From contig CAWDDH010000003.1 in NCBI GenBank assembly GCA_963801105.1, forward strand, positions 309,135-373,134: DNA of 64,000 nucleotides, read 5' to 3'. The notes beneath the pieces are model-generated. The model was not told where the DNA came from and did not search any database. It was given only the letters and a program-made list of their open reading frames with translations. The DNA is from an uncultured Acidimicrobiia bacterium. GTDB taxonomy: Bacteria > Actinomycetota > Acidimicrobiia > IMCC26256 > JAENVU01. Positions 3,378 through 59,338 of this stretch are shown piece by piece. The position numbers and the translations under genes were made by a program. Numbering within the stretch: position 1 is the stretch's first letter; each line of letters begins with the position of its first letter.

Positions 3378-6300
3378 ATGGTTGAGGCGCAGGTCGGCAC
3401 ACGATCGGTTCTGTTCACCGATCTGGTGGGCTCGACCGAGTTGCGCGTCCAGCTGGGCGAAGAGGCCGCCGACAACCTGCGCCGTGCGCACGATGCGCTC
3501 CTCGCCGAGGCGGTGACCGCCCACGGGGGTACGGTTGTCAAGGGCCTCGGCGACGGGATCATGGCCAGCTTCGACTCGGCTGCCGACGGGGTGGCCGCGG
3601 CCGTGGCGGCCCAGCAGGCCGTCGCCGCCCACAGCCGCCGCCACCCGGACCAGGCCTTCTCGGTTCGAGTCGGGCTGTCGATCGGCGACGTGTCGACCGA
3701 GGCCGGCGACGTGTTCGGCGTCCCTGTCGTGGAAGCGTCGCGGTTGTGCGCGTCGGCCACCGGAGGCGAGATCCTCGCCGCCGACCTGGTGCGGGCGCTC
3801 GCCCGCGGCCGGGGCGGGTTCACCTTCGAGCCGATGGGCGACATCGACTTCAAGGGCCTCGCCGAGCCCGTCCCCGCGTGCCGAGTGCTCTGGCAGCCGC
3901 TCTTCGACCTCGATGGTGACCGGCGCGAGCGAGTGCCGATCTCCGCCGCGCTCATCGGTGCCACGACGGCCTACGTCGGCCGCGAGATCCTGCGCGAGGA
4001 GCTGAACCGCGAGTGGGACGACGTCCAGGGCGGCACCTGCCGCACCGTGCTGCTGGCCGGGGAGCCCGGTGTGGGCAAGACGCACACGGCCGCCGAGCTG
4101 GCCCACACGGCCTTCAGCGACGGCGCCGTCGTGCTGTTCGGCCGCTGCGACGAGGGCCTCGGCGCGCCGTACCAGCCGTTCGTGGAGGCGCTCGAGCACT
4201 ACGTGACCCACTGCGAGAGCCCCGTCCTGGGACGACTCGCCGGCGAGCTGCGCCGCATGGTCCCCGATCTCGGACCCACTGTCGCGGCCACCGACCAGCC
4301 CGTGGCCTCGGACCCAGCATCGGAAGAGCACCGCCTGTTCGAGGCGTGCACGTCGTGGCTCGTGGAGATGTCCCGGGACGAGCACGGGTGCGTCCTCGTC
4401 CTCGATGACCTGCACTGGGCCACGAAGCCCACGCTGCAGCTGCTGCAGCACGTCGTGCGCGGCGTCACCGAGCAAGGAGCACCGCTCCTCGTGCTCGCCA
4501 CCTACCGCGACACCGACATCGATCGCGCGCATCCGCTGGCGGCCGCCATCGGCGACCTCCGCCGGTTGACCGGTGTCACCCGCGTCGCGGTCGACAACCT
4601 CAGCGCCGCGGAGGTCGTCGACTTCATCGCCGCCGCGGCCGGCCACGACCTCGACGAGCCGACCCGCCGGCTGGCCGACGCCGTCTACGCGGAGACCGAG
4701 GGGAACCCGTTCTTCGTGGGCGAGGTGCTCCGCCACCTGGTGGAGACCGGTGGTGTCCGGCGGGAGGGCGAGCGGTGGTCGGTCACCGACCCCGACGCCG
4801 TGACCGTGCCCGAGGGTGTGCGCGACGTCGTCGGCCGCCGCCTCGACCGCCTGTCGTCGACCGCCAACGACCTGCTGTCGATCGCCGCCGTGCTCGGCCG
4901 GGACTTCGACATCGAGGTGCTCACCGCGTTGGTCGATGCGAGCGACGCCGCCGCCCTCGACGCCCTGGACCAAGCAGTCAGGGCCCGGCTCATCGAGGAG
5001 ACGGGCATCGATCGCTTCCGGTTCGCCCACGCGCTCGTGCGCACCACGCTCTACGAGGAGCTCTCCGCCACGAGACGCCGGCGCCTCCACCGCGGCGTGG
5101 CCGACGCGCTCGAGAAGCTGCGGCCCCACGACGTCCGGGCCCTCGCGCACCACTGCATCGAAGCCGGGCCCGACGGCACCGACTTCTCGCGGGCCTTGCG
5201 CTACTCCCTCGCGGCAGCCGAGGAGGCCCTGGGCGCACGGGCCTTCGCGGAAGCGAGCGCCCGCTTCCGCACCGCGCTCGAGCTCCTCGACGACGCCGAC
5301 CAAGCGGGCAGCGCGCCCTGGGTCGCGGCGATGAGCGGCCTGGGCGAGGCGCTCCGCGACGAAGGCGACGGCAGCTTCAGAGAGGTGCTCCTGGCCGCCT
5401 CCCGCCGCGCCCTCGAGCTGGGCAACGTCGATCTCGTGGTGCGGGCGGTGCTCGCCAACACCCGCGGCTTGGCGGCAGTCGTCAGCTCCGTCGACCGCGG
5501 ACAGGTGGATCTGATCGAGGAAGCACTCGCCCTCGTCGGTGACGCGCCGAGCCCGGCCCGGGCCCGGCTGCTCGGGCAGCTCGCCTCCGAGCTCACGTTC
5601 TCGGGCCAGCACGATCGACGGGTCGCCCTGGCCGACGATGCGGTAGGCATGGCTCGGGCGCTCGACGACGAGCGCCTGCTGTGCGAGGTCATCGTCAACA
5701 CCGGCTACGCGGCGATCACCGGAAGTCGATTGCGGCAGCTCACCGATCGCACCGCTGAAGGCGTGCGGCTCGCCGACCGAACCGGCGACCCAGCTCTGCG
5801 GGTGATCTCGCGCCTCTTCGACAGCGGCGCACTCGTCGCCACCGGGCAGATCGGAGAGTCGAACCGCGTCGCCCGTCAGGCCGTTGCCATCGCGGACACG
5901 GAGGGTTCCCCCTTGCTCCGGTGGATAACCAGCGTCACCGCCATCCGTCTCGAGCTGCTGCGCGGCGACCCCCGACGAGCACCCGAATTGAACGATCAGC
6001 TCATCACCACAGGGGCGGAGCTGGGCCAACCCGACGGCGCCCAGTGGTGGGCAGCGGGCGCAGCCGGCATGGCGTGGCTCACGGGCGAAGCGGGTGCACT
6101 AGCCGACGCGGCCGGCGAAATGGTCGAGCAGTACCCGGGCGCTCCGGCGTGGCGCTGCTCGCACGCGTGGCTGCTCTGCGAGGCTGGGCGCCTCGCCGAG
6201 ACGCGCGAGGTTCTGCGCACGAACCTCCTGACACCCGCCGCCGCCGTCGCCGAACCCTATCCCCTCGTGATGTCCTTCCAGCTCGCGACTGTGGCGGCCG

Positions 6301-48898: not shown

Positions 48899-49905
48899 GC
48901 GATCCGCTCGATGTCGGCGGCGCGCACGGGATGGAGCGGCGGCTCCCCGGCCACGAATCGCTCGACCTCGGTCACCGCCAGCTCGGCGAGCCGCTCGAGC
49001 TCGTTGCCCATCGCGCCCGCCACGTGCGGGGTCACGAACACGTTGGGCAGCGCCAGCAGCACGTGGTCGGCCGGCAGCGGCTCGGGATCGGTGACGTCGA
49101 GGACGGCCGCGATCCGGCCGGCCGCCAGCTCGGCGATCAGCGCGTCCTGGTCCACGATCGCGGGACGGGCCGTGTTCACCACGGTCGCGCCGTCAGGAAG
49201 CGCCGCGAGCTCGGCGGCACCGATCATTCCCCGCGTGGGCGGGATGTCAGGTGCATGGATCGACAGGACCTGGACCGACGCGCACAGCGCGTCGAGGTCG
49301 TCGACCTTCTCCACCCCCATCGCGTCGGCCTCGGTCGTGGTCAGGTACGGGTCGTAGACCGCGAGCTCGAGATCGGTCGCGCCCAGCGCGTCGATGACGA
49401 GCCGGCCCACCATCGACGCGCCCACGATCCCGACGCGCGCGCCGTGGTTGCCGACGCGGGTGAGGTCGAGTGGCAGCTTCACCGTGGGATCCCGTTGGAG
49501 CTCGCGGACGAGGAACACACCCTTGTTGGCGAGCAAGATCGCGGCGACCGCGTACTCCGCGACGGGGACCGCGTTGGCTGGCGCCGCGGACGTCACGAGG
49601 ATGCCCCGCGCGAACACGTCGTCGGTGACCTGCCACTTCACCGTGCCCGCGCCGTAGGCGAACAGCGCCAGACGGGGCGCCCGGTCGAGCAGGTCGCCGG
49701 TGAGGGTGGGACACCCCCAGTGGCCGACGAGGATGTCGGTCTCGGCGAGCAGGGCATCGGCGCGGGGATCGTCCCAACCGGTGAGCGGATCAGGATCGAG
49801 GATCCGCCCCACGGCGTCGAGTCGGGCGAGCTGAGCGGGCGTGAAGAGGTGGCCGACCATGCCGTCGAGCATCGCCAGCAGGATCCCGGGTCGGTCGCCG
49901 CTCAT
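48895..49905 (-). CDS. D-2-hydroxyacid dehydrogenase family, NAD-binding
   Basis: Start at 49905 (or 49914). It has RVGIVGASMVGRLV (GxGxxG), VNTARPAIVD and TPHVAGA. Confidence 0.85.
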   Translation of the reverse strand: MSGDRPGILLAMLDGMVGHLFTPAQLARLDAVGRILDPDPLTGWDDPRADALLAETDILVGHWGCPTLTGDLLDRAPRLALFAYGAGTVKWQVTDDVFARGILVTSAAPANAVPVAEYAVAAILLANKGVFLVRELQRDPTVKLPLDLTRVGNHGARVGIVGASMVGRLVIDALGATDLELAVYDPYLTTTEADAMGVEKVDDLDALCASVQVLSIHAPDIPPTRGMIGAAELAALPDGATVVNTARPAIVDQDALIAELAAGRIAAVLDVTDPEPLPADHVLLALPNVFVTPHVAGAMGNELERLAELAVTEVERFVAGEPPLHPVRAADIERIA

Positions 49906-49990
49906 GCGACGCATGCTCGCATGTCTACCCTTCACGTTGCGTGGTCGGTGCCCACACTGCGAGACTCCGACTCTTCGGAGGGGGCGTGGC

Positions 49991-52219
49991 ATGCGGAAAC
50001 CTTTGGTCGTCGCGGTGTTGGTGGCGATGGTCGCGACAAGCTGTCGTGTGCTCCTGGTCCCCGACCCGCCCGGTCCGCCGAGCACCGACGGGTTCGTCCC
50101 GGCCTCGTGGTGGAAGGCCCGGCAGGATTCCTATCTCGACTACGCGTCCACGCAGTTCTCGCCGAGCTCGTTCACCAACCTGATCGCCAACGCCGAGCAC
50201 TCCCGGCGCACCGGTGCCCCGTTCGACACCGCCGGCATCACGCTCGCCGACTTCGCGAACACCTTCTCCCGGCTCGACAACTACGTCGACACCTCGGACT
50301 TCGACCTCACGTACCTGATGAACCTCTGGTACGGGTACCGGGACCTCCTCCCCGCCGACGTGCGCGCCGAGGTCGAGAGCCACTTCCGCTCGTTCAAGTA
50401 CTGGTTCACCGACCCGCAGCCGGCGGGCGTCGTCGACCAGCGGTACTACTGGTCCGAGAACCACCAGCTGCTGTACCACGCCGACGAGTACCTGGCGGGC
50501 CAGGCGTTCCCGTCCGACACGTTCTCGAGCGACGGCAACACGGGCGCGTGGCACACCGAGCGAGCCCGGAAGTTCATCGCCGACTGGCTGGACCAGAAGG
50601 TGAAGTTCGGGTTCACCGAATGGCACTCCGACGTCTACTACCAGAAGACGCTCGACGCGCTCCTGACCGTCGTCGAGTGGGTCGACGATCCCGTGCTCGC
50701 CCGCCGCGCGTCGATGGTGCTCGACCTCCTCCTGTTCGACATCGCGCTCAACATCCAGAAGGGCAACTTCGGCGCGACCCACGGCCGGTCGTACATGAAG
50801 GACAAGAGCGTCGCCACCGACCAGGACGTCTTCAACCTGTCCAAGCTCCTCTTCGACGACACGAGCCTCGGCTACACCTCGACCGGCGACGCCGGCGCGG
50901 TGCTCCTGGCGCGCGCCAAGAAGTACCGCCTGCCTGCAGTGATCCTGCGGGTCGCCCAGTCCAAGCACACCACGGTCGACCAGGAGCACATGGGCGTCGC
51001 GCTGGACGCCTCCGCGCCCGTCGACCCGGCTCAGACCGGCGTCGACGGCTATTCCTTCTCCGACCCGGCCAACGTCGCGTTCTGGTGGGAGCGCGGCGCG
51101 CAGACGGCCTGGCAGACCGTGCCGCTCACGCTCGACACACTCGACCAGTACGGGCTCTGGGATTCGGATTTCTTCAGCCCGTTCAAGCCGATCGCCGACC
51201 TCACCGGCGGCGACCGTGCCGTGGCCCAGAGCCTGTCGCAGGCGCTCGAGAACATGCTCGGGTTCGCGCTGCTCACCGCGGTCGACACCTACACGTGGCG
51301 CAGCGACTCGGTGATGCTCTCGACCGCGCAGTCGTACCGGCCCGGGAAGGCCAGCGAGCAGCATCACGTCTCGCAGGCGACGCTCGACGAGCAGGCGATC
51401 GTGTTCACGACCCACCCGAAGAACGAGCCGCAGTCGGGTACCCAGTGGCCCGACGACGACGGCTACTGGACCGGCAACGGGTCGCTCCCCCGCGCCGCGC
51501 AGCACGGGGCGCTCTCGATGAGCCTCTACGCGCCGACGTTCGCGAGCCCCGGCCCGCCATTCACCGCCTTCCGGTACCTGCCCTACACGCACGCGTACTT
51601 CCCGCAGGAGCGCTTCGACGAGGTGGTGCAGAGCAACGGATGGACCTTCGGGCGCAAGGGCGACGGCTACGTGGCGCTCTGGTCGTGGCGACCGACATCG
51701 TGGCGCACGTACACCGACCCGGGGATCTTCACCCACGGGCTCACCCAGCCGTTCGATCTCGTCGCGCCCGGCGGCGCCGACGACGTCTGGCTGACCCAGG
51801 TCGGCGATGCCAAGACCTTCGGTGACTTCGCCGCCTTCCGCGCCGCGGTCGCCGGCGGTGCGATCAGCGTGGCGCCCCGGCCCGCGACCGGCGACGTGCC
51901 CGGCGGCTTCGACGTCAGCTACCAGTCGCCGACGGAGGGACTCGTGCAGTTCGGCACGACCGGTGACCTGAAGGTCAAGGGACAGGTCGTCCCGCTCGAC
52001 TCCGGCAGGCGCTTCGACAACCCGTGGGCGTCGGCGCCGGTGGGCGCCCAGCAGATCACGATCGCTGACGCGGCCGGGGACCTGAAGCTCGACTTCGCCA
52101 CCTCGACACGCGTCGCGTCCTCGAAACGCGCGAAGCCGCACGACGACGGTCACGGTCACCACGACCACCACGACCACGGTCACCACGACCACGGTCACCA
52201 CGACCACGGAGACCACTGA
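49991..52219 (+). CDS. secreted lipoprotein, possibly polysaccharide-lyase-like (alpha/alpha toroid), with C-terminal His/Asp-rich tail
   Basis: 742 aa from MRKPLVVAVLVAMVATSC (lipobox), with GGAGGGGG 6 nt upstream. YYWSENHQLLYHADEY and WHSDVYYQKT recall heparinase II/III-type folds (weak). The tail is HDDGHGHHDHHDHGHHDHGHHDHGDH. Confidence 0.65.
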   Translation: MRKPLVVAVLVAMVATSCRVLLVPDPPGPPSTDGFVPASWWKARQDSYLDYASTQFSPSSFTNLIANAEHSRRTGAPFDTAGITLADFANTFSRLDNYVDTSDFDLTYLMNLWYGYRDLLPADVRAEVESHFRSFKYWFTDPQPAGVVDQRYYWSENHQLLYHADEYLAGQAFPSDTFSSDGNTGAWHTERARKFIADWLDQKVKFGFTEWHSDVYYQKTLDALLTVVEWVDDPVLARRASMVLDLLLFDIALNIQKGNFGATHGRSYMKDKSVATDQDVFNLSKLLFDDTSLGYTSTGDAGAVLLARAKKYRLPAVILRVAQSKHTTVDQEHMGVALDASAPVDPAQTGVDGYSFSDPANVAFWWERGAQTAWQTVPLTLDTLDQYGLWDSDFFSPFKPIADLTGGDRAVAQSLSQALENMLGFALLTAVDTYTWRSDSVMLSTAQSYRPGKASEQHHVSQATLDEQAIVFTTHPKNEPQSGTQWPDDDGYWTGNGSLPRAAQHGALSMSLYAPTFASPGPPFTAFRYLPYTHAYFPQERFDEVVQSNGWTFGRKGDGYVALWSWRPTSWRTYTDPGIFTHGLTQPFDLVAPGGADDVWLTQVGDAKTFGDFAAFRAAVAGGAISVAPRPATGDVPGGFDVSYQSPTEGLVQFGTTGDLKVKGQVVPLDSGRRFDNPWASAPVGAQQITIADAAGDLKLDFATSTRVASSKRAKPHDDGHGHHDHHDHGHHDHGHHDHGDH
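52139..52216 (+). repeat. coding microsatellite-like repeat (GGTCACCACGACCAC units) encoding the His/Asp/Gly tail
   Basis: Three near-perfect 15-nt units plus CAC/GAC-rich flanks at the 3' end of the lipoprotein gene. Confidence 0.7.
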
Positions 52220-55331: not shown

Positions 55332-55961
55332 TCAGGAGCCCGGTGGCAGCACCGCGTCACTGACGATTGCGAGATTCTGCTCGGAGTCGCTGCCGAGTGA
55401 ACCACCGCCGAGGTGAAGCATCGAGCGGTGCAATAGCCACAGCTCCGGAAGGATCTCGGTCAAGAGGCGGCCCCCTGCGTAGATCCGCACGACGGAGCTC
55501 TCCGACACCACGATCGCGATCGCGCCGGTACTCGCCGAGATGGACGCTGCCGCGAGGTGCCGCGTCCCGAGTCCGAGCGGCTGCTCGCGCTGGGACAACG
55601 TCGACTCGAAGTAGCGGCATGCGGACAACACCACCCCGTCGTTGGCGACCACGAACCCGCCGTCGAGCTGGGCGAGCTCTTTGATCGTCTCGCGCACACC
55701 GGGGTCGTCGATTCGCGGGCCGCCATCGACATGGCCGGCGAGCGGGTCGAGGATCAGGCAGCGACTGTGCCGGAACACCGCATCCTGGTCGCCGACGGTA
55801 AACAGGGTTCCGACCCGATGACCCTCGCGACCCTCGCGCGCGATCTCGATCGCCAATTCCGCGACTGCCTGGAGCACATCGACCGTCGTTCCTGCGTCAC
55901 GCAGCTCGATGTCATCGAGCACGGCGGTGAGCGACGTCGGCGTCGTCTCCACGGTCACCAC
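55332..55961 (-). CDS. stand-alone diadenylate cyclase (DAC/DisA_N) domain protein, motif variants DGG and RHL
   Basis: 209 aa with a GTG start in a GTGGTGA overlap with the recombinase stop. GTLFTVGD, LDGGFVVANDG (canonical hDGAvi), LGLGTRHLAAASIS (canonical GTRHRAA) and IVVSESSVVRIYAGG match DAC-domain order and spacing. Confidence 0.7.
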   Translation of the reverse strand: MVTVETTPTSLTAVLDDIELRDAGTTVDVLQAVAELAIEIAREGREGHRVGTLFTVGDQDAVFRHSRCLILDPLAGHVDGGPRIDDPGVRETIKELAQLDGGFVVANDGVVLSACRYFESTLSQREQPLGLGTRHLAAASISASTGAIAIVVSESSVVRIYAGGRLLTEILPELWLLHRSMLHLGGGSLGSDSEQNLAIVSDAVLPPGS

Positions 55962-56788
55962 CGCGTGGGCCCGACGTCCGCGTCGAGGTATCGCCTGGTG
56001 GTTCGGACGTCGACATGGCCGGCCTGGCGCTGGATGTCCTCGATCGAGTCGCCGCTCGCGTGCGCGGCGACGATGTACCGGCGCCGCAGCGTGTTGCCCG
56101 AGACGGGGCCAGTGACCCCCGCGACGCGTGCGACCTCCTTGATCACATAGTCGATTCCGAAACGAGAGAGCCGGTCCGAGCGCCGGGCCCGCCCCTGGCT
56201 CAGCAGCAGCGGGCCGCTCCGTCGGCGCGCGAGGTAGGCATGGACGACGGTCGCGGTGTCCGGATGGAGCGGGATCTCTCGCTTCCCGACCGTGAGCGCC
56301 ATGGCCGGTGGGCGGCCGGATACGTCGTTCGCGTCTGCCGCCGCGACCTCACCGACCTTCAGCCCGTCGAGCATCAGCAGCCGGACGAGGACCGCGCTCC
56401 GTCGGGCGATGCCATCGGCAGCTTCGAGGAGCGCCGCGGCCTCTTCGTCGTCGAGGACCTCGGTCGCGCTCTTGGATCCGACCGCCGGCCGAGCGATGTC
56501 GGAGAACGCGGCCTCGCCGCTCGCGGTGGCGTAGACGCCGAAGGATGCCACTGCCGAGAGCCGTCTCGCGGTCGTCGCCGCGCTGACGCCCGTTCGTTCG
56601 ACCGCGTTCCGGTACCGGCGCAGCGACCCGACATCCGCGGTGAGCGGATCGATCTGCTGGTCCCGGCACCAGGCGAGGAACCGGTCGAGATCCGCGGTGT
56701 ACGCGGCACGCGTGTTCTCGGACCGCTGGGTGGCGAGCCATTCCGCCCGGAGAACCTCGATGGTGGACCGTCGGGTGCCACGCGCCAT
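55955..56788 (-). CDS. tyrosine recombinase-like protein (XerC/D-like fold) with apparently non-canonical catalytic residues
   Basis: 277 aa from MARGTRRST (ATG at 56788).
- N-terminal SAM-like domain: TRAAYTADLDRFLAWC.
- C-terminal catalytic-domain layout: LMLDGLKVGE (canonical TGLRxxE, so Arg to Lys), VGKREIPLH, GNTLRRRY (canonical HxLRH, so His to Asn), AGHVDVRTTRRY (His and Tyr present).
- Alignment was done by eye. Confidence 0.75.
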   Translation of the reverse strand: MARGTRRSTIEVLRAEWLATQRSENTRAAYTADLDRFLAWCRDQQIDPLTADVGSLRRYRNAVERTGVSAATTARRLSAVASFGVYATASGEAAFSDIARPAVGSKSATEVLDDEEAAALLEAADGIARRSAVLVRLLMLDGLKVGEVAAADANDVSGRPPAMALTVGKREIPLHPDTATVVHAYLARRRSGPLLLSQGRARRSDRLSRFGIDYVIKEVARVAGVTGPVSGNTLRRRYIVAAHASGDSIEDIQRQAGHVDVRTTRRYLDADVGPTRW

Positions 56789-56812
56789 CCGCGGATCCTG
56801 CCAGAGCACCTC

Positions 56813-56846
56813 TTGACAGTCAACATAATCACGGACATTATGTTGA
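56813..56846. promoter_or_regulatory. divergent promoter region with a perfect 10-bp inverted repeat (TCAACATAAT-N7-ATTATGTTGA), a dif-like / operator candidate
   Basis: TTGACA (56813..56818)-17 nt-CATTAT (56836..56841) faces hsp20. The back-to-back TTGACAGTCAA gives a TTGACT -35 for the recombinase strand. The inverted repeat at 56820..56846 covers the spacer and -10 of the hsp20 promoter. This is the most AT-rich stretch of the region. Confidence 0.5.
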
Positions 56847-56887
56847 TTGAACGGCGCCAATTCGGTGCCCCGAACGGAAGGATGCCC

Positions 56888-57319
56888 ATGAGCATGCTGA
56901 TGCGATTCGACCCTCTCCGTGAGTTCGACCGCGTGTTCGACCAGGCCTGGAGTCAGACCCGCGCCGCGAGCGTCCCGATGGACGCCTACCGCCACGGCGA
57001 CAGCTTCGTGCTGAATCTCGACCTGCCGGGTGTCGACCCCGACTCCATCGACGTCACGGTCGAGCGCAATGCGCTGACCATCACGGCCGAGCGGCACTGG
57101 CAGCCCGTGGAGGGCGATCAGGTGGTCGCCACCGAGCGGCGTCACGGCACCTTCAGCCGGCAGGTCTATCTCGGAGAGGGACTCGACTCCGAGGGGATCC
57201 ACGCCACGTACGACCACGGCGTCTTGACCGTGACCCTGCCCGTGGCCGAGCGGTCCAAGCCTCGCCGGATCGAGATCTCGGCGAGCCGTCAGCCGGAGGC
57301 GATCACGACCGGCGCCTGA
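56888..57319 (+). CDS. Hsp20/alpha-crystallin family small heat-shock protein
   Basis: 143 aa (ATG at 56888, GGAAGG 5 nt upstream; alternative ATG at 56882). It has MDAYRHGDSFVLNLDLPGV...ERRHGTFSRQVYL...YDHGVLTVTLPV. Confidence 0.9.
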   Translation: MSMLMRFDPLREFDRVFDQAWSQTRAASVPMDAYRHGDSFVLNLDLPGVDPDSIDVTVERNALTITAERHWQPVEGDQVVATERRHGTFSRQVYLGEGLDSEGIHATYDHGVLTVTLPVAERSKPRRIEISASRQPEAITTGA

Positions 57320-57380: not shown

Positions 57381-58598
57381 TCAGGCCGGGCGGATGGCGT
57401 CCGCCGGTGCGAGGCGGGCCGCGCGCCCTGCAGGCGAGATGCCCGCGATCGCCCCGACCACGATCGCCGCGCCCAGTCCGGCGAACCACGACCAGATCGG
57501 CATCGAGAAGGTGATGTGCTGCACCGCGGCGTAGACCGCGGTGATCACGACACCGAGGCCGACGCCGAGCACCCCGCCCAACGTCGACAGCAACACCGCC
57601 TCCACGAGGAACTGCACCCGCACATGGCCCTTCGTGGCCCCGAGCGCGCGGCGCACGCCGATCTCGGTCCGCCGTTCGAGCACCGAGATGACCATCACGT
57701 TGGCGATGCCGATCCCGCCGACGAGCAGCGCCACCCCACCCAGTCCGAGCAACAACGCGGTGAGCGTGCTGTCGACCTCGTTCTTCGCCTTGATGACGTC
57801 GGACGGACGGGAGACCTGCACCTCGCCCGGGCTCTGCGGGTTCGCGGTCGCCGGCAGTACTGCACGCACCGGGTCCACCTGGGCCGGGTCGGTCACCACG
57901 AACACGCTCGACGGCGCGACCGTCGCGTCGAAGAGCCGCTCCGCGATCGGCAGGCCGATGAACGCCGCGGTGTCGAGGTTCGGGTACAGCGGCGCGGGCT
58001 CGAGGATGCCGACGACGGAGAACCATGTGCCGCCCACGTACACCATCGGGTCGGCATCCAGGTTCAAGAGCCCGAGGGTCGACGCGGCGTCGGATCCGAG
58101 CACGATCGTCGGCTGCGAGACGTCGGCTGCGCTGAGGAACCGCCCGTCCCGGACTCGAGCGCCGATGGTACGGGCGAGGTCGCGGTCGGTGGCCTGCACG
58201 CTGATGCCACCGGTCTCGGACTCGGAGACGTACGGTGACCGGCGGACGGTCGCGCTCACGGTCGTGATCCCGCTCGCCGTCTGCACCGGACCGACGCGCC
58301 GGATCATGACGACGGAGTCCTCGCCGAGGGCGGCCGTGCTTCCGGGCGTGAAGGAGGTACCGGCCTGCACCTCCAGGCGGTTCGTGCCGAGCCGGTCCAG
58401 GCGCCGCGACAGGTCGGCCTGGCTGGACGACGAGATGCCCAGCACGGCGACCAGAGCGGCGATGCCGATGGCGATGCCGGTCGCGGTGAGTGCAGTGCGG
58501 AGCTTGCGCGACCGCAGCCCGACGGTCCCCACGCTCACCGCGTCGCGCGGGAGGAGGCGGCTGCGCAGCTCCGGCGCCGCGACCTTGGTCGCCGTCAT
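57381..58598 (-). CDS. ABC transporter permease, MacB/FtsX-like
   Basis: 405 aa. It has an N-terminal TM, a large periplasmic MacB_PCD-like domain and a C-terminal FtsX 3-TM bundle (RRTEIGVRRALGATKGHV). Confidence 0.85.
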   Translation of the reverse strand: MTATKVAAPELRSRLLPRDAVSVGTVGLRSRKLRTALTATGIAIGIAALVAVLGISSSSQADLSRRLDRLGTNRLEVQAGTSFTPGSTAALGEDSVVMIRRVGPVQTASGITTVSATVRRSPYVSESETGGISVQATDRDLARTIGARVRDGRFLSAADVSQPTIVLGSDAASTLGLLNLDADPMVYVGGTWFSVVGILEPAPLYPNLDTAAFIGLPIAERLFDATVAPSSVFVVTDPAQVDPVRAVLPATANPQSPGEVQVSRPSDVIKAKNEVDSTLTALLLGLGGVALLVGGIGIANVMVISVLERRTEIGVRRALGATKGHVRVQFLVEAVLLSTLGGVLGVGLGVVITAVYAAVQHITFSMPIWSWFAGLGAAIVVGAIAGISPAGRAARLAPADAIRPA

Positions 58599-59338
58599 TC
58601 GTCGACCCGCGTCTCGTCCACGATGCGCCCGTCGCGCAACGTGACCCGGCGCGGGATCGTCAGGGCGAGGGCGGGGTCGTGGGTGATCATCAGGATCGTC
58701 GTGCCGTCCTGGTGCAGCGCGCGCAACACGTCCATGATCGCGTTCCCCGTCGCGCTGTCGAGGTTGCCGGTGGGCTCGTCGGCGAGGACCATCGCCGGTT
58801 CGGCGACGAGGGCCCGCGCGATCGCGACCCGCTGGCGCTCACCGCCCGAGAGCTTGCCGGGCGAGTGCTCGGCGCGGTGCGCCAGCCCGACGCGATCGAG
58901 CATCTCGAGCGCCCGCTCCCGCCGGCGGCGGTGCGCCACGCCGGAGTAGAGGAGCCCGAGCGCCACGTTCTCCTGGGCATCGAGCCCGTCGATGAGGTTG
59001 AACGTCTGGAACACGAAGCCGATGCGCTGCCCGCGCAGCGCGCTCAGCTGCGCGTCGTCGAGCCCGGCGACGTCCTCACCCGCGATCCGCACCGTTCCCG
59101 ACGTCGGGCGATCGAGCGCTCCCACGAGGTTCAGCAGGGTCGACTTTCCCGAGCCCGACGGGCCCACCACCGCGACGAACTCCCCCGACTGCACCGAGAG
59201 GTCCACGCCGCGGAGCGCGTCGACCGGCGGGGTGCTCGGGTAGGTCTTCCCGACGTCGGTGAGCTCGAGAACGCTCACGATGCCCACTCTCGGCCCCGCG
59301 GGCAGAGCCGTTCGGGCCCCGCCCGCCCCGCGCGGCAT
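58595..59338 (-). CDS. ABC transporter ATP-binding protein (MacB/LolD-type)
   Basis: Walker A GPSGSGKST, signature LSGGERQRV, Walker B MVLADEPTGNLD. The start may be the GTG at 59278 (VSVLELTDV) rather than the ATG at 59338. Confidence 0.9.
   Translation of the reverse strand: MPRGAGGARTALPAGPRVGIVSVLELTDVGKTYPSTPPVDALRGVDLSVQSGEFVAVVGPSGSGKSTLLNLVGALDRPTSGTVRIAGEDVAGLDDAQLSALRGQRIGFVFQTFNLIDGLDAQENVALGLLYSGVAHRRRRERALEMLDRVGLAHRAEHSPGKLSGGERQRVAIARALVAEPAMVLADEPTGNLDSATGNAIMDVLRALHQDGTTILMITHDPALALTIPRRVTLRDGRIVDETRVDE

Follow-up and report, generated by a model that had tools for sequence, protein, structure and literature searches.

A Xer-derived protein as a candidate repressor of an Acidimicrobiia hsp20 locus that also carries a stand-alone diadenylate cyclase-like gene

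A stretch of 64,000 nucleotides (64 kb) from an uncultured Acidimicrobiia bacterium (GenBank assembly GCA_963801105.1, contig CAWDDH010000003.1, positions 309,135 to 373,134), hereafter called the window, carries a small heat-shock gene, hsp20, that is divergent from a pair of overlapping genes. The first gene of this pair codes for a protein with the fold of Xer tyrosine recombinases, and the second codes for a protein that consists of little more than a diadenylate cyclase (DAC) domain. They are termed here the recombinase-like and the DAC-like gene. In public records, proteins of these two types are named only “tyrosine-type recombinase/integrase” and “DisA nucleotide-binding domain protein”. 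The genes are arranged as follows, in window coordinates.

55955..56788, minus strand: recombinase-like gene, 277 amino acids, Xer-type tyrosine-recombinase fold with a degenerate active site
55332..55958/55961, minus strand: DAC-like gene, 208/209 amino acids, stand-alone DAC fold related to DacZ
55955..55961, minus strand: GTGGTGA, overlap of the recombinase-like stop with the DAC-like start
56888..57319, plus strand: hsp20, 143 amino acids, with an alternative start at 56882 that gives 145 amino acids

When the inner GTG is taken as the start codon of the DAC-like gene, the overlap with the recombinase-like stop comes down to the four nucleotides GTGA, an arrangement that would couple the two genes translationally. 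The hsp20 product has the alpha-crystallin domain (Pfam HSP20, PF00011, E-value 1e-23; 83.9 bits against a cut-off of 20.8), and is 51% identical to an HSP18-type protein of Streptomyces (BLASTP against the hsp18 homologue of a Streptomyces plasmid). Between the divergent genes lies a short control region with these features.

56813..56823, no strand assigned: palindrome TTGACAGTCAA, made of back-to-back -35 hexamers, TTGACA (plus strand, hsp20) and TTGACT (minus strand, recombinase-like operon)
56820..56846, no strand assigned: proposed operator TCAACATAAT-cacggac-ATTATGTTGA, an inverted repeat with the core ACATAAT-N7-ATTATGT
56836-56841, plus strand: hsp20 -10 box CATTAT, overlapped by the right arm of the inverted repeat
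56794..56799, minus strand: putative -10 box CAGGAT of the recombinase-like/DAC-like operon, 17 nucleotides from TTGACT, proposed from the sequence
56853..56869, plus strand: GC-rich hairpin GGCGCC-AATTC-GGTGCC, a tentative feature of the predicted hsp20 5′ untranslated region (5′ UTR), upstream of the Shine-Dalgarno sequence

A promoter scan of 2.3 kb returned TTGACA-17-CATTAT as the only sigma-70-like promoter (10/12 matches), and this promoter presumably drives hsp20. The inverted repeat lies between its -35 and -10 boxes and abuts both -35 boxes of the palindrome. On the other strand, the ATG of the recombinase-like gene follows CAGGAT after only 6 nucleotides. Both this spacing and a CAnnAT hexamer are repeated in relatives, which suggests a leaderless mRNA. 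The inverted-repeat site occurs once in the window and therefore has no partner site for recombination there.

The recombinase-like protein has the two domains of a tyrosine recombinase, as judged both by Pfam (Phage_int_SAM_1, PF02899, 1e-12; Phage_integrase, PF00589, 8e-12) and by structure prediction. Its NCBIfam matches are XerA (2e-26), XerD (1e-24), and XerC (1e-22), at roughly one quarter of the respective cut-offs (81 bits against 335 for XerC, TIGR02224; 87 against 330 for XerD, TIGR02225), and the protein does not reach the XerC and XerD equivalog cut-offs. An AlphaFold2 model with a predicted local distance difference test (pLDDT) score of 77 contains a four-helix core-binding domain followed by a catalytic domain. 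Foldseek matched this model to XerA, XerD, IntI, lambda Int, and Cre, all with a probability of 1.0, and also to XerH. Another match is the DNA-bound structure of SroF from phage phi3T, at 11% identity.

To map the active site, we used a phmmer alignment to E. coli XerD from the Protein Data Bank (PDB) (1A0P, E-value 2e-10). The original prediction, made by eye, had described a 277-residue XerC/D-fold protein with Lys in place of the first catalytic Arg and Asn in place of the His of the HxxR motif, and the alignment bears this out. K144 (context LDGLKVGE) occupies the position of XerD R148 (Arg I), and N232 (context SGNTLRRRY) that of H244 (His I). The three remaining residues that the prediction listed are retained: R235 for R247 (Arg II), H258 for H270 (His II), and Y267 for Y279. 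The alignment therefore gave the K/N substitutions instead of a canonical RKHRHY set, and the catalytic set R-K-H-R-H/W-Y is incomplete in this protein.

The same substitutions are found throughout the family. In an alignment with 29 relatives (49-80% identity), K144, N232, R235, and H258 are invariant across the 29 members, and the Tyr is present in 28 of them. In Xer, Cre, and Int a catalytic Lys sits in the beta-hairpin; here this position varies and can be K, A, S, D, G, R, or another residue. Because the Lys and Asn substitutions are invariant among the relatives, they represent a selected family trait rather than noise. The protein appears to descend from Xer recombinases and to have lost catalytic competence.

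The genomic surroundings of the family were compared among 43 loci with a recombinase-like gene (the window, L001, L081-L118, L121, L123, and L125), which are related and come mostly from soil and sediment Acidimicrobiia metagenomes. A divergent hsp20 gene lies upstream in 23/26 evaluable loci, and the 10-mer ATTATGTTGA is found no more than 250 nucleotides upstream of the recombinase-like gene in all 28 that could be evaluated. Across the loci linked to hsp20, only one part of the intergenic DNA is conserved, the block (A/C)ACATAAT-N7-ATTATGT-TGAC(T)GTCAA. The TGAC(T)GTCAA part of this block is conserved in 22/22 of these loci, and the spacer within the repeat is 7 bp in 18 of the 22 and 8-9 bp in the other four. 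The motif follows the recombinase-like gene, since the 11-mer ATTATGTTGAC has no match in 79 genome loci that carry only the DAC-like gene.

The DAC-like gene is a less constant neighbor. It lies directly downstream of the recombinase-like gene in 21 of 35 evaluable loci, or in 16/30 if the window and four loci retrieved through DAC-like queries are left out of the count. In the other 14 of the 35, the DAC-like gene is absent from this position and both hsp20 and the motif are kept. Where both genes are present, an ATGA or GTGA stop-start overlap joins them in 13/19 loci, and gaps of 2-25 nucleotides separate them in the rest.

Most related loci (L001, L085, L089, L094, L096, L101, L115, and others) also have a hairpin of different sequence at a position equivalent to that of the hsp20 5′ UTR hairpin in the window. 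These stems are 6-9 bp long, GC-rich, and located between the transcription start and the Shine-Dalgarno sequence, where they could serve as an mRNA-stabilizing 5′ stem or as a thermometer-like element. Folding of the region from 10 loci gave z-scores of -2.2 to +0.3, which do not separate the hairpin from a GC-rich background.

The sequence of the inverted repeat resembles dif, the site on which Xer recombinases act. The dif sites of E. coli, B. subtilis, and (as predicted) Frankia alni all contain ATAAT-N4-ATTATGT (PMC3025954), and the repeat cores ACATAAT and ATTATGT match this dif core, but are spaced at least 3 bp wider. It is tempting to view the family as Xer-derived proteins that still read dif-like half-sites. 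Since -10 boxes, too, are AT-rich, this resemblance is no more than suggestive.

Additional evidence for a regulatory role comes from sister lineages. In three Acidimicrobiia loci that lack the recombinase-like gene (L124, L002, and L003), hsp20 is divergent from a gene for HspR, a repressor of the MerR family, and the DAC-like gene is located downstream of hsp20. The DAC-like proteins of these loci are close relatives, with 62-66% identity. The L124 regulator scores above the HspR equivalog cut-off (NF047375, 121 bits against 105), and its counterparts in L002 and L003 match it at 65% and about 45-60% identity (tblastn). The 10-mer ATTATGTTGA was not found in L124. Because the recombinase-like gene and HspR take equivalent positions in sister lineages, the arrangement resembles the non-orthologous displacement of one repressor by another. 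The recombinase-like protein is most likely the regulator of hsp20.

The DAC-like protein belongs to the DAC family (Pfam PF02457, 1.5e-19, 70.2 bits against a cut-off of 27). Its best NCBIfam match is DacZ (NF041371, 3e-35, 122 bits against a cut-off of 430), a match that covers only profile positions 122-268, and its DisA score (NF010009) of 26 bits falls far below the cut-off of 201. The protein is a DAC domain with a short tail, and it lacks the DisA linker and the C-terminal helix-hairpin-helix DNA-binding domain. An AlphaFold2 model (pLDDT 74; predicted template modeling score 0.76) has only the DAC domains of DisA, CdaA, DacA, and CdaM among its top 50 Foldseek matches, with mycobacterial DisA structures ranked highest. 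By sequence, the solved structures of CdaA are only distant matches, with an E-value of 4e-5 in a PDB search.

The motifs of the window protein are DGG and TRHL rather than the canonical DGA and RHR. In a census of 94 DAC-like loci, DGA occurs in 63 and DGG in 22, the latter being characteristic of the Acidimicrobiia clade and a few others. In 84/84 scored loci, a hydrophobic residue (M, V, L, I, F, or W) takes the third position of RHR. VSES is conserved in the census, and members from different phyla share the D, G, (S/T)RH, and VSE residues. The proteins also share a conserved, family-specific C-terminal extension, ILPELWLLHR. As judged from this census, DGG and RHL are traits of the lineage and the family and not signs of decay. 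An active enzyme is favored for the DAC-like protein because most catalytic residues are kept, and its product is probably cyclic di-adenosine monophosphate (c-di-AMP). Mutational data from M. tuberculosis DisA bear on both motifs: replacement of RHR by AAA abolishes activity, and the G73A change in the glycine of DGA leaves the enzyme active (PMC3328451).

The DAC-like family is large, with more than 7000 matches, 60-86% identity among the top 120, and 1362 clusters at 50% identity in an exhaustive search. In species-representative genomes there are 242 matches (47-72% identity) from Acidimicrobiia, Desulfobacterota, Nitrospirota, Acidobacteriota, Elusimicrobiota, Planctomycetota, Calditrichota, Bacteroidota, Chloroflexota, and Deinococcota. 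The next relatives, from Thermoplasmata, Methanospirillum, and other Euryarchaeota, are 270-450 amino acids long and carry the DAC domain at the C-terminus. These uncharacterized archaeal DacZ-like proteins carry the pattern REGREG...DG(A/G/V)...RHx...VSE. Some members of the wider group have additional N-terminal domains. In P0249 (324 amino acids), a Cys/His-rich N-terminus that by eye resembles a UBP-type zinc finger is fused to a full-length DAC-like domain, including an IIPELWLF version of the extension, and other relatives have TPR or membrane N-termini (P0314).

Genes for protein quality control recur beside the DAC-like gene well beyond the Acidimicrobiia. Of 79 loci without the recombinase-like gene, 20, from many phyla, have an hsp20 gene within 6 kb of the DAC-like gene. 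The rough expectation for a random gene, from general knowledge rather than computation, is about 1%. Several phyla have what appear to be single operons, in the order hsp20-hsp20-DAC (L006, L008) or DAC-hsp20 (L005, L009, L053, L061). Genes with a dnaJ domain adjoin the DAC-like gene in L012 and L023, and htrA does so in L013. In an Elusimicrobia locus (L034), the order is hsp20, a MerR-family gene, and the DAC-like gene, and the MerR-family gene overlaps the DAC-like start by 4 nucleotides.

A second recurring neighbor is a DHH-DHHA1 phosphoesterase gene, from a family that includes phosphodiesterases for c-di-AMP and pApA. It is found directly upstream of the DAC-like gene in L022 (4879-5922), L037 (1474-2529), and L059 (2-472), with weaker upstream matches in L029 (4669-5979) and L041 (917-2077) and a downstream match in L030. 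The loci with upstream genes belong to Bacteroidota, Calditrichota, and Acidobacteriota. The pairing suggests a cyclase and its phosphodiesterase.

These comparisons also settle much of what the original prediction had said about the gene pair. Its GTGGTGA overlap is visible in the sequence, the bare DAC domain with DGG and RHL is confirmed by Pfam and by the family alignment, and the divergence from hsp20 holds in the gene layout of the window and in most evaluable relatives. The adjacency of the two genes is not peculiar to one genome, and the predicted structure of the DAC-like protein matches DisA, CdaA, and CdaM. The idea that the pair forms a split analogue of DisA is not supported by the context. 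The constant partners of the recombinase-like gene are hsp20 (23/26) and the repeat (28/28), not the DAC-like gene. Among 80 genome loci found with a DAC-like query, only one contains a recombinase-like gene. No DNA-repair genes are linked to the module, radA is not a neighbor of the DAC-like gene, and the domain itself is DacZ-like. A further suggestion, that the two proteins are a regulator pair for hsp20, is supported in part: it suits the recombinase-like protein, whose position is taken by HspR in sister lineages, and less so the DAC-like protein, which does not look like an obligate half. Likewise, the motifs it called variant are present, but they characterize a clade.

The substituted residues, the two folds, the conserved motif, and the gene linkages are observed; on these comparative genomic grounds, we propose that the recombinase-like protein binds DNA and acts as a repressor, that the locus is induced by heat, and that the DAC-like protein is an active cyclase. 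Transcription of hsp20 and of the recombinase-like/DAC-like operon would start from back-to-back promoters of the sigma-70 type, whose -35 boxes form TTGACAGTCAA. The recombinase-like protein would be used as a sequence-specific DNA-binding protein, two protomers of which would occupy the dif-like inverted repeat ACATAAT-N7-ATTATGT. Because the repeat fills the spacer and the -10 box of the hsp20 promoter, a protein bound there would be expected to block RNA polymerase. The repeat also abuts the -35 box of the recombinase-like operon, and so binding would repress hsp20 and probably its own operon as well. Heat or proteotoxic stress would then lift repression, and candidate sensing mechanisms are intrinsic thermolability (as for RheA), titration by a chaperone (as for HspR), or input from the DAC-like partner. 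Through its translational coupling to the repressor, the DAC-like protein would be co-induced, and its most likely role is to produce c-di-AMP as a signal linked to stress. It seems to be a conserved component of heat-shock loci and not an indispensable part of the regulator, and in this clade its gene seems to have been placed behind the repressor gene and hence under the same bidirectional control region. In this reading, a repressor domesticated from a Xer recombinase controls a heat-shock locus, and a diadenylate cyclase is co-regulated with it and probably induced by stress; we hold it with about as much confidence as doubt.

Several observations weigh against this proposal. The recombinase-like protein keeps Tyr, Arg II, and His II, and some residual DNA chemistry may be possible. 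The right repeat arm falls on the hsp20 -10 box, so that promoter function alone would explain part of its conservation, and the left arm could be a target for some other factor. In the DAC-like protein, DGG stands in place of DGA and RHR has lost its final Arg. The close ATGA coupling may reflect a physical complex of the two proteins, beyond simple co-expression. Moreover, three of the recombinase-like loci (L092, L095, and L103) have no divergent hsp20, and the counts given above are not independent events because the loci are related.

If the two proteins do form a complex, the complex itself could be the sensor: the DAC-like protein, through ATP or c-di-AMP binding or through temperature, would control operator binding, or DNA binding would control the output of the cyclase. 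The latter option follows the logic of DisA, transferred from branched DNA to an operator. We consider such a complex rather unlikely, although it stays a live alternative because the translational coupling is conserved, with the 4-nucleotide overlap in 13/19 loci. An unrelated DNA-binding protein, the MerR-family member of L034, is coupled to a DAC-like gene in the same manner, and the conserved C-terminal extension of the DAC-like family is a further point in its favor. However, hsp20 and the motif persist in the 14/35 recombinase-like loci that lack the downstream DAC-like gene, 79/80 DAC-like genome loci have no recombinase-like gene, and the DAC-like gene of HspR-type loci follows hsp20 and not the regulator. 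One apparent in-frame fusion of the two proteins, P0078 (contig L121, gene 3538-5050), would favor a complex, but we rejected this candidate since it lies on a contig of a long-read metagenome-assembled genome (MAG) with evident frameshifts, which break the recombinase-like gene. The recombinase-like gene at L123 3135-3995 is likewise broken by apparent frameshifts in a long-read MAG. Because frameshifts on long-read MAG contigs produced P0078, such fusions are unfit as Rosetta-stone evidence. A different doubt concerns the DAC-like protein alone, which might be a pseudo-enzyme that serves the proteostasis network as a nucleotide-binding or structural protein and makes no c-di-AMP. The hydrophobic residue in place of the last Arg of RHR (all 84 scored of the 94 loci), DGG for DGA in this clade, the distance to characterized DACs (CdaA at 4e-5, and NCBIfam scores far under all cut-offs), and the linkage to chaperone genes all fit this proposal. 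It would be unusual, though, for a dead enzyme to keep the D, G, (S/T)RH, and VSE residues across phyla at 50-60% overall identity. RHx is also present in the archaeal DacZ-like relatives, the M. tuberculosis DisA G73A enzyme is active (PMC3328451), and a DHH-DHHA1 phosphoesterase gene adjoins the DAC-like gene in at least five loci. We regard a pseudo-enzyme, too, as an improbable explanation.

A third alternative is that the recombinase-like protein is an active site-specific recombinase on a dif-like site, either a module-specific Xer protein or the integrase of a mobile element, and that its linkage to hsp20 is incidental. In its favor, the Tyr, Arg II, and His II are conserved, and the site has both the inverted-arm architecture and the core sequence of dif. 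Against this stand the invariant replacement of Arg I by Lys and of His I by Asn, and the lack of conservation of the hairpin Lys. A comparable change is known from the Tn1549 integrase, in which we take R225 to be Arg I and the R225K substitution to block catalysis. That Arg-to-Lys mutant, crystallized bound to DNA (PDB 6EN2), is among the fold matches of the window protein. In addition, there is one site in 64 kb, the site is always located inside the hsp20 promoter, and the spacer of the repeat varies between loci from 7 to 9 bp. Among the flanking open reading frames there was no sign of a tRNA, phage, or transposon, although tRNAs were not scanned for. PADLOC returned no match for the recombinase-like protein and only a marginal one for the DAC-like protein (E-value 0.01, 13.8 bits). 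With no supporting context and no defence-system match in PADLOC, a defence-system or mobile-element interpretation was dropped, and an active recombinase seems very improbable to us.

The proposed repressor has precedents among proteins with the tyrosine-recombinase fold. MrpR (YopR) of prophage SPbeta has this fold with its catalytic Arg and His substituted and its Tyr kept, carries out no recombination, and is a DNA-binding repressor (PMC10516654). The window protein has the same fold and the same kinds of substitution, and would represent the same kind of exaptation. MrpR and SroF differ from it in that they are repressors of phage lysogeny that act on repeated phage elements, whereas the window protein is chromosomal, Xer-derived, and located at an Acidimicrobiia heat-shock promoter. 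Its best matches by sequence and by fold are XerC, XerD, and XerA (PDB 1A0P, 5HXY, and 4A8E), with which it shares the two-domain architecture but not Arg I, His I, or a conserved hairpin Lys. The ATAAT and ATTAT cores are 7 (to 9) bp apart in the sites of this family and 4 bp apart in dif. Moreover, the Xer/dif system is tied to the replication terminus, whereas here there is a single site, within a promoter, and the gene is linked to hsp20.

The gene layout mirrors that of RheA and hsp18 in Streptomyces albus, where a divergent, autoregulated repressor acts at an operator that lies between the two genes and overlaps their promoters (PMC11754652). In both cases an actinobacterial hsp18/hsp20 gene is divergent from an established or proposed repressor gene, and the operator or proposed operator lies in the shared promoter region. 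Our proxy for RheA was the divergent neighbor of hsp18 on a Streptomyces plasmid (L122), a probable ortholog by assumption; its N-terminus reads MTAADQP, compared with MTTADRP for RheA as deduced from a primer. The proxy contains no Pfam domain, and its comparison with the recombinase-like family by hhalign revealed no similarity (probability 0.04%). In the sister Acidimicrobiia loci with HspR and a DAC-like gene, HspR is likewise divergent from hsp20. However, its fold, a MerR helix-turn-helix, is unrelated, and the motif linked to the recombinase-like gene is absent from the HspR loci.

The DAC-like protein shares its fold with DisA, but the partner of its gene would bind a promoter site and not branched DNA. 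Compared with DacZ/CdaZ, it lacks the N-terminal pyruvate-kinase-like domain and has the family-specific C-terminal extension. DacZ/CdaZ proteins are archaeal, whereas the window protein is bacterial and linked to heat-shock genes. The literature searched contains no description of this module or of either linkage. Repressors with the tyrosine-recombinase fold are already known from MrpR/YopR, and the pairing with a DacZ-type cyclase at a heat-shock locus is new in the literature searched.

If the proposed repressor is borne out, it would offer a clear example, on a chromosome, of a Xer recombinase that became a transcription factor and still recognizes dif-like half-sites. It would also be an in-place replacement of HspR at an hsp20 promoter, and hence a compact model for the passage from enzyme to regulator. 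For the Acidimicrobiia it would be a candidate heat-shock regulator; the literature searched holds no description of heat-shock control in this group. Independently of the repressor, the comparison draws attention to an unstudied and highly conserved family of stand-alone DAC proteins whose genes are found across many phyla (among them Desulfobacterota, Acidobacteriota, Nitrospirota, Planctomycetota, Calditrichota, and Elusimicrobiota) beside genes for hsp20, dnaJ-like, hspR-like, htrA, and DHH phosphodiesterase proteins. A link between c-di-AMP and protein-folding stress would, in that case, become directly testable. A bolder version of the proposal can be imagined, though we think it a long shot. 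In this version, the pseudo-recombinase and the DacZ-type cyclase would make up a new heat-shock switch, with operator occupancy set by temperature and by adenine nucleotides or c-di-AMP through the DAC-like subunit. The stand-alone DAC-like family would be a pan-bacterial enzyme of the heat-shock regulon that couples proteotoxic stress to c-di-AMP.

Some other genes recur near these loci. A family of about 150-185 amino acids that has no Pfam or NCBIfam match is found in heat-shock loci (L124 3227-3784; L002 3397-3900, minus strand; L116 376-1324; L108 578-1553; L123 5064-5986; L107 1217-1669) and is absent from the window. Its members lie downstream of the recombinase-like, DAC-like, or HspR gene and at times form tandem duplicates. 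Genes with a STAS domain of the anti-sigma-factor-antagonist type are located downstream of the recombinase-like or DAC-like gene in L095 (1660-2001) and L123 (4803-5489). On its divergent side, L095 has a gene for a 248-residue membrane protein instead of hsp20, together with a copy of the motif that is degraded but kept.

A short DnaJ-domain gene follows hsp20, as in an hsp20-dnaJ-like operon, in L087, L091, L097, L102, L123, and L125, and also in L002 (4480-4686). No such gene lies 3′ of hsp20 in the window, where a convergent FtsX/ABC transporter pair is found at 57381-59338. In L121, FtsX and ABC-transporter genes are located about 1.5-2.7 kb beyond hsp20. Elsewhere in the window, and unrelated to the locus, a 792-codon open reading frame on the plus strand (49841-52219) codes for a protein with a long His/Asp-rich C-terminal tail (HDDGHGHHDHHDHGHHDHGHHDHGDH) that may bind metal.

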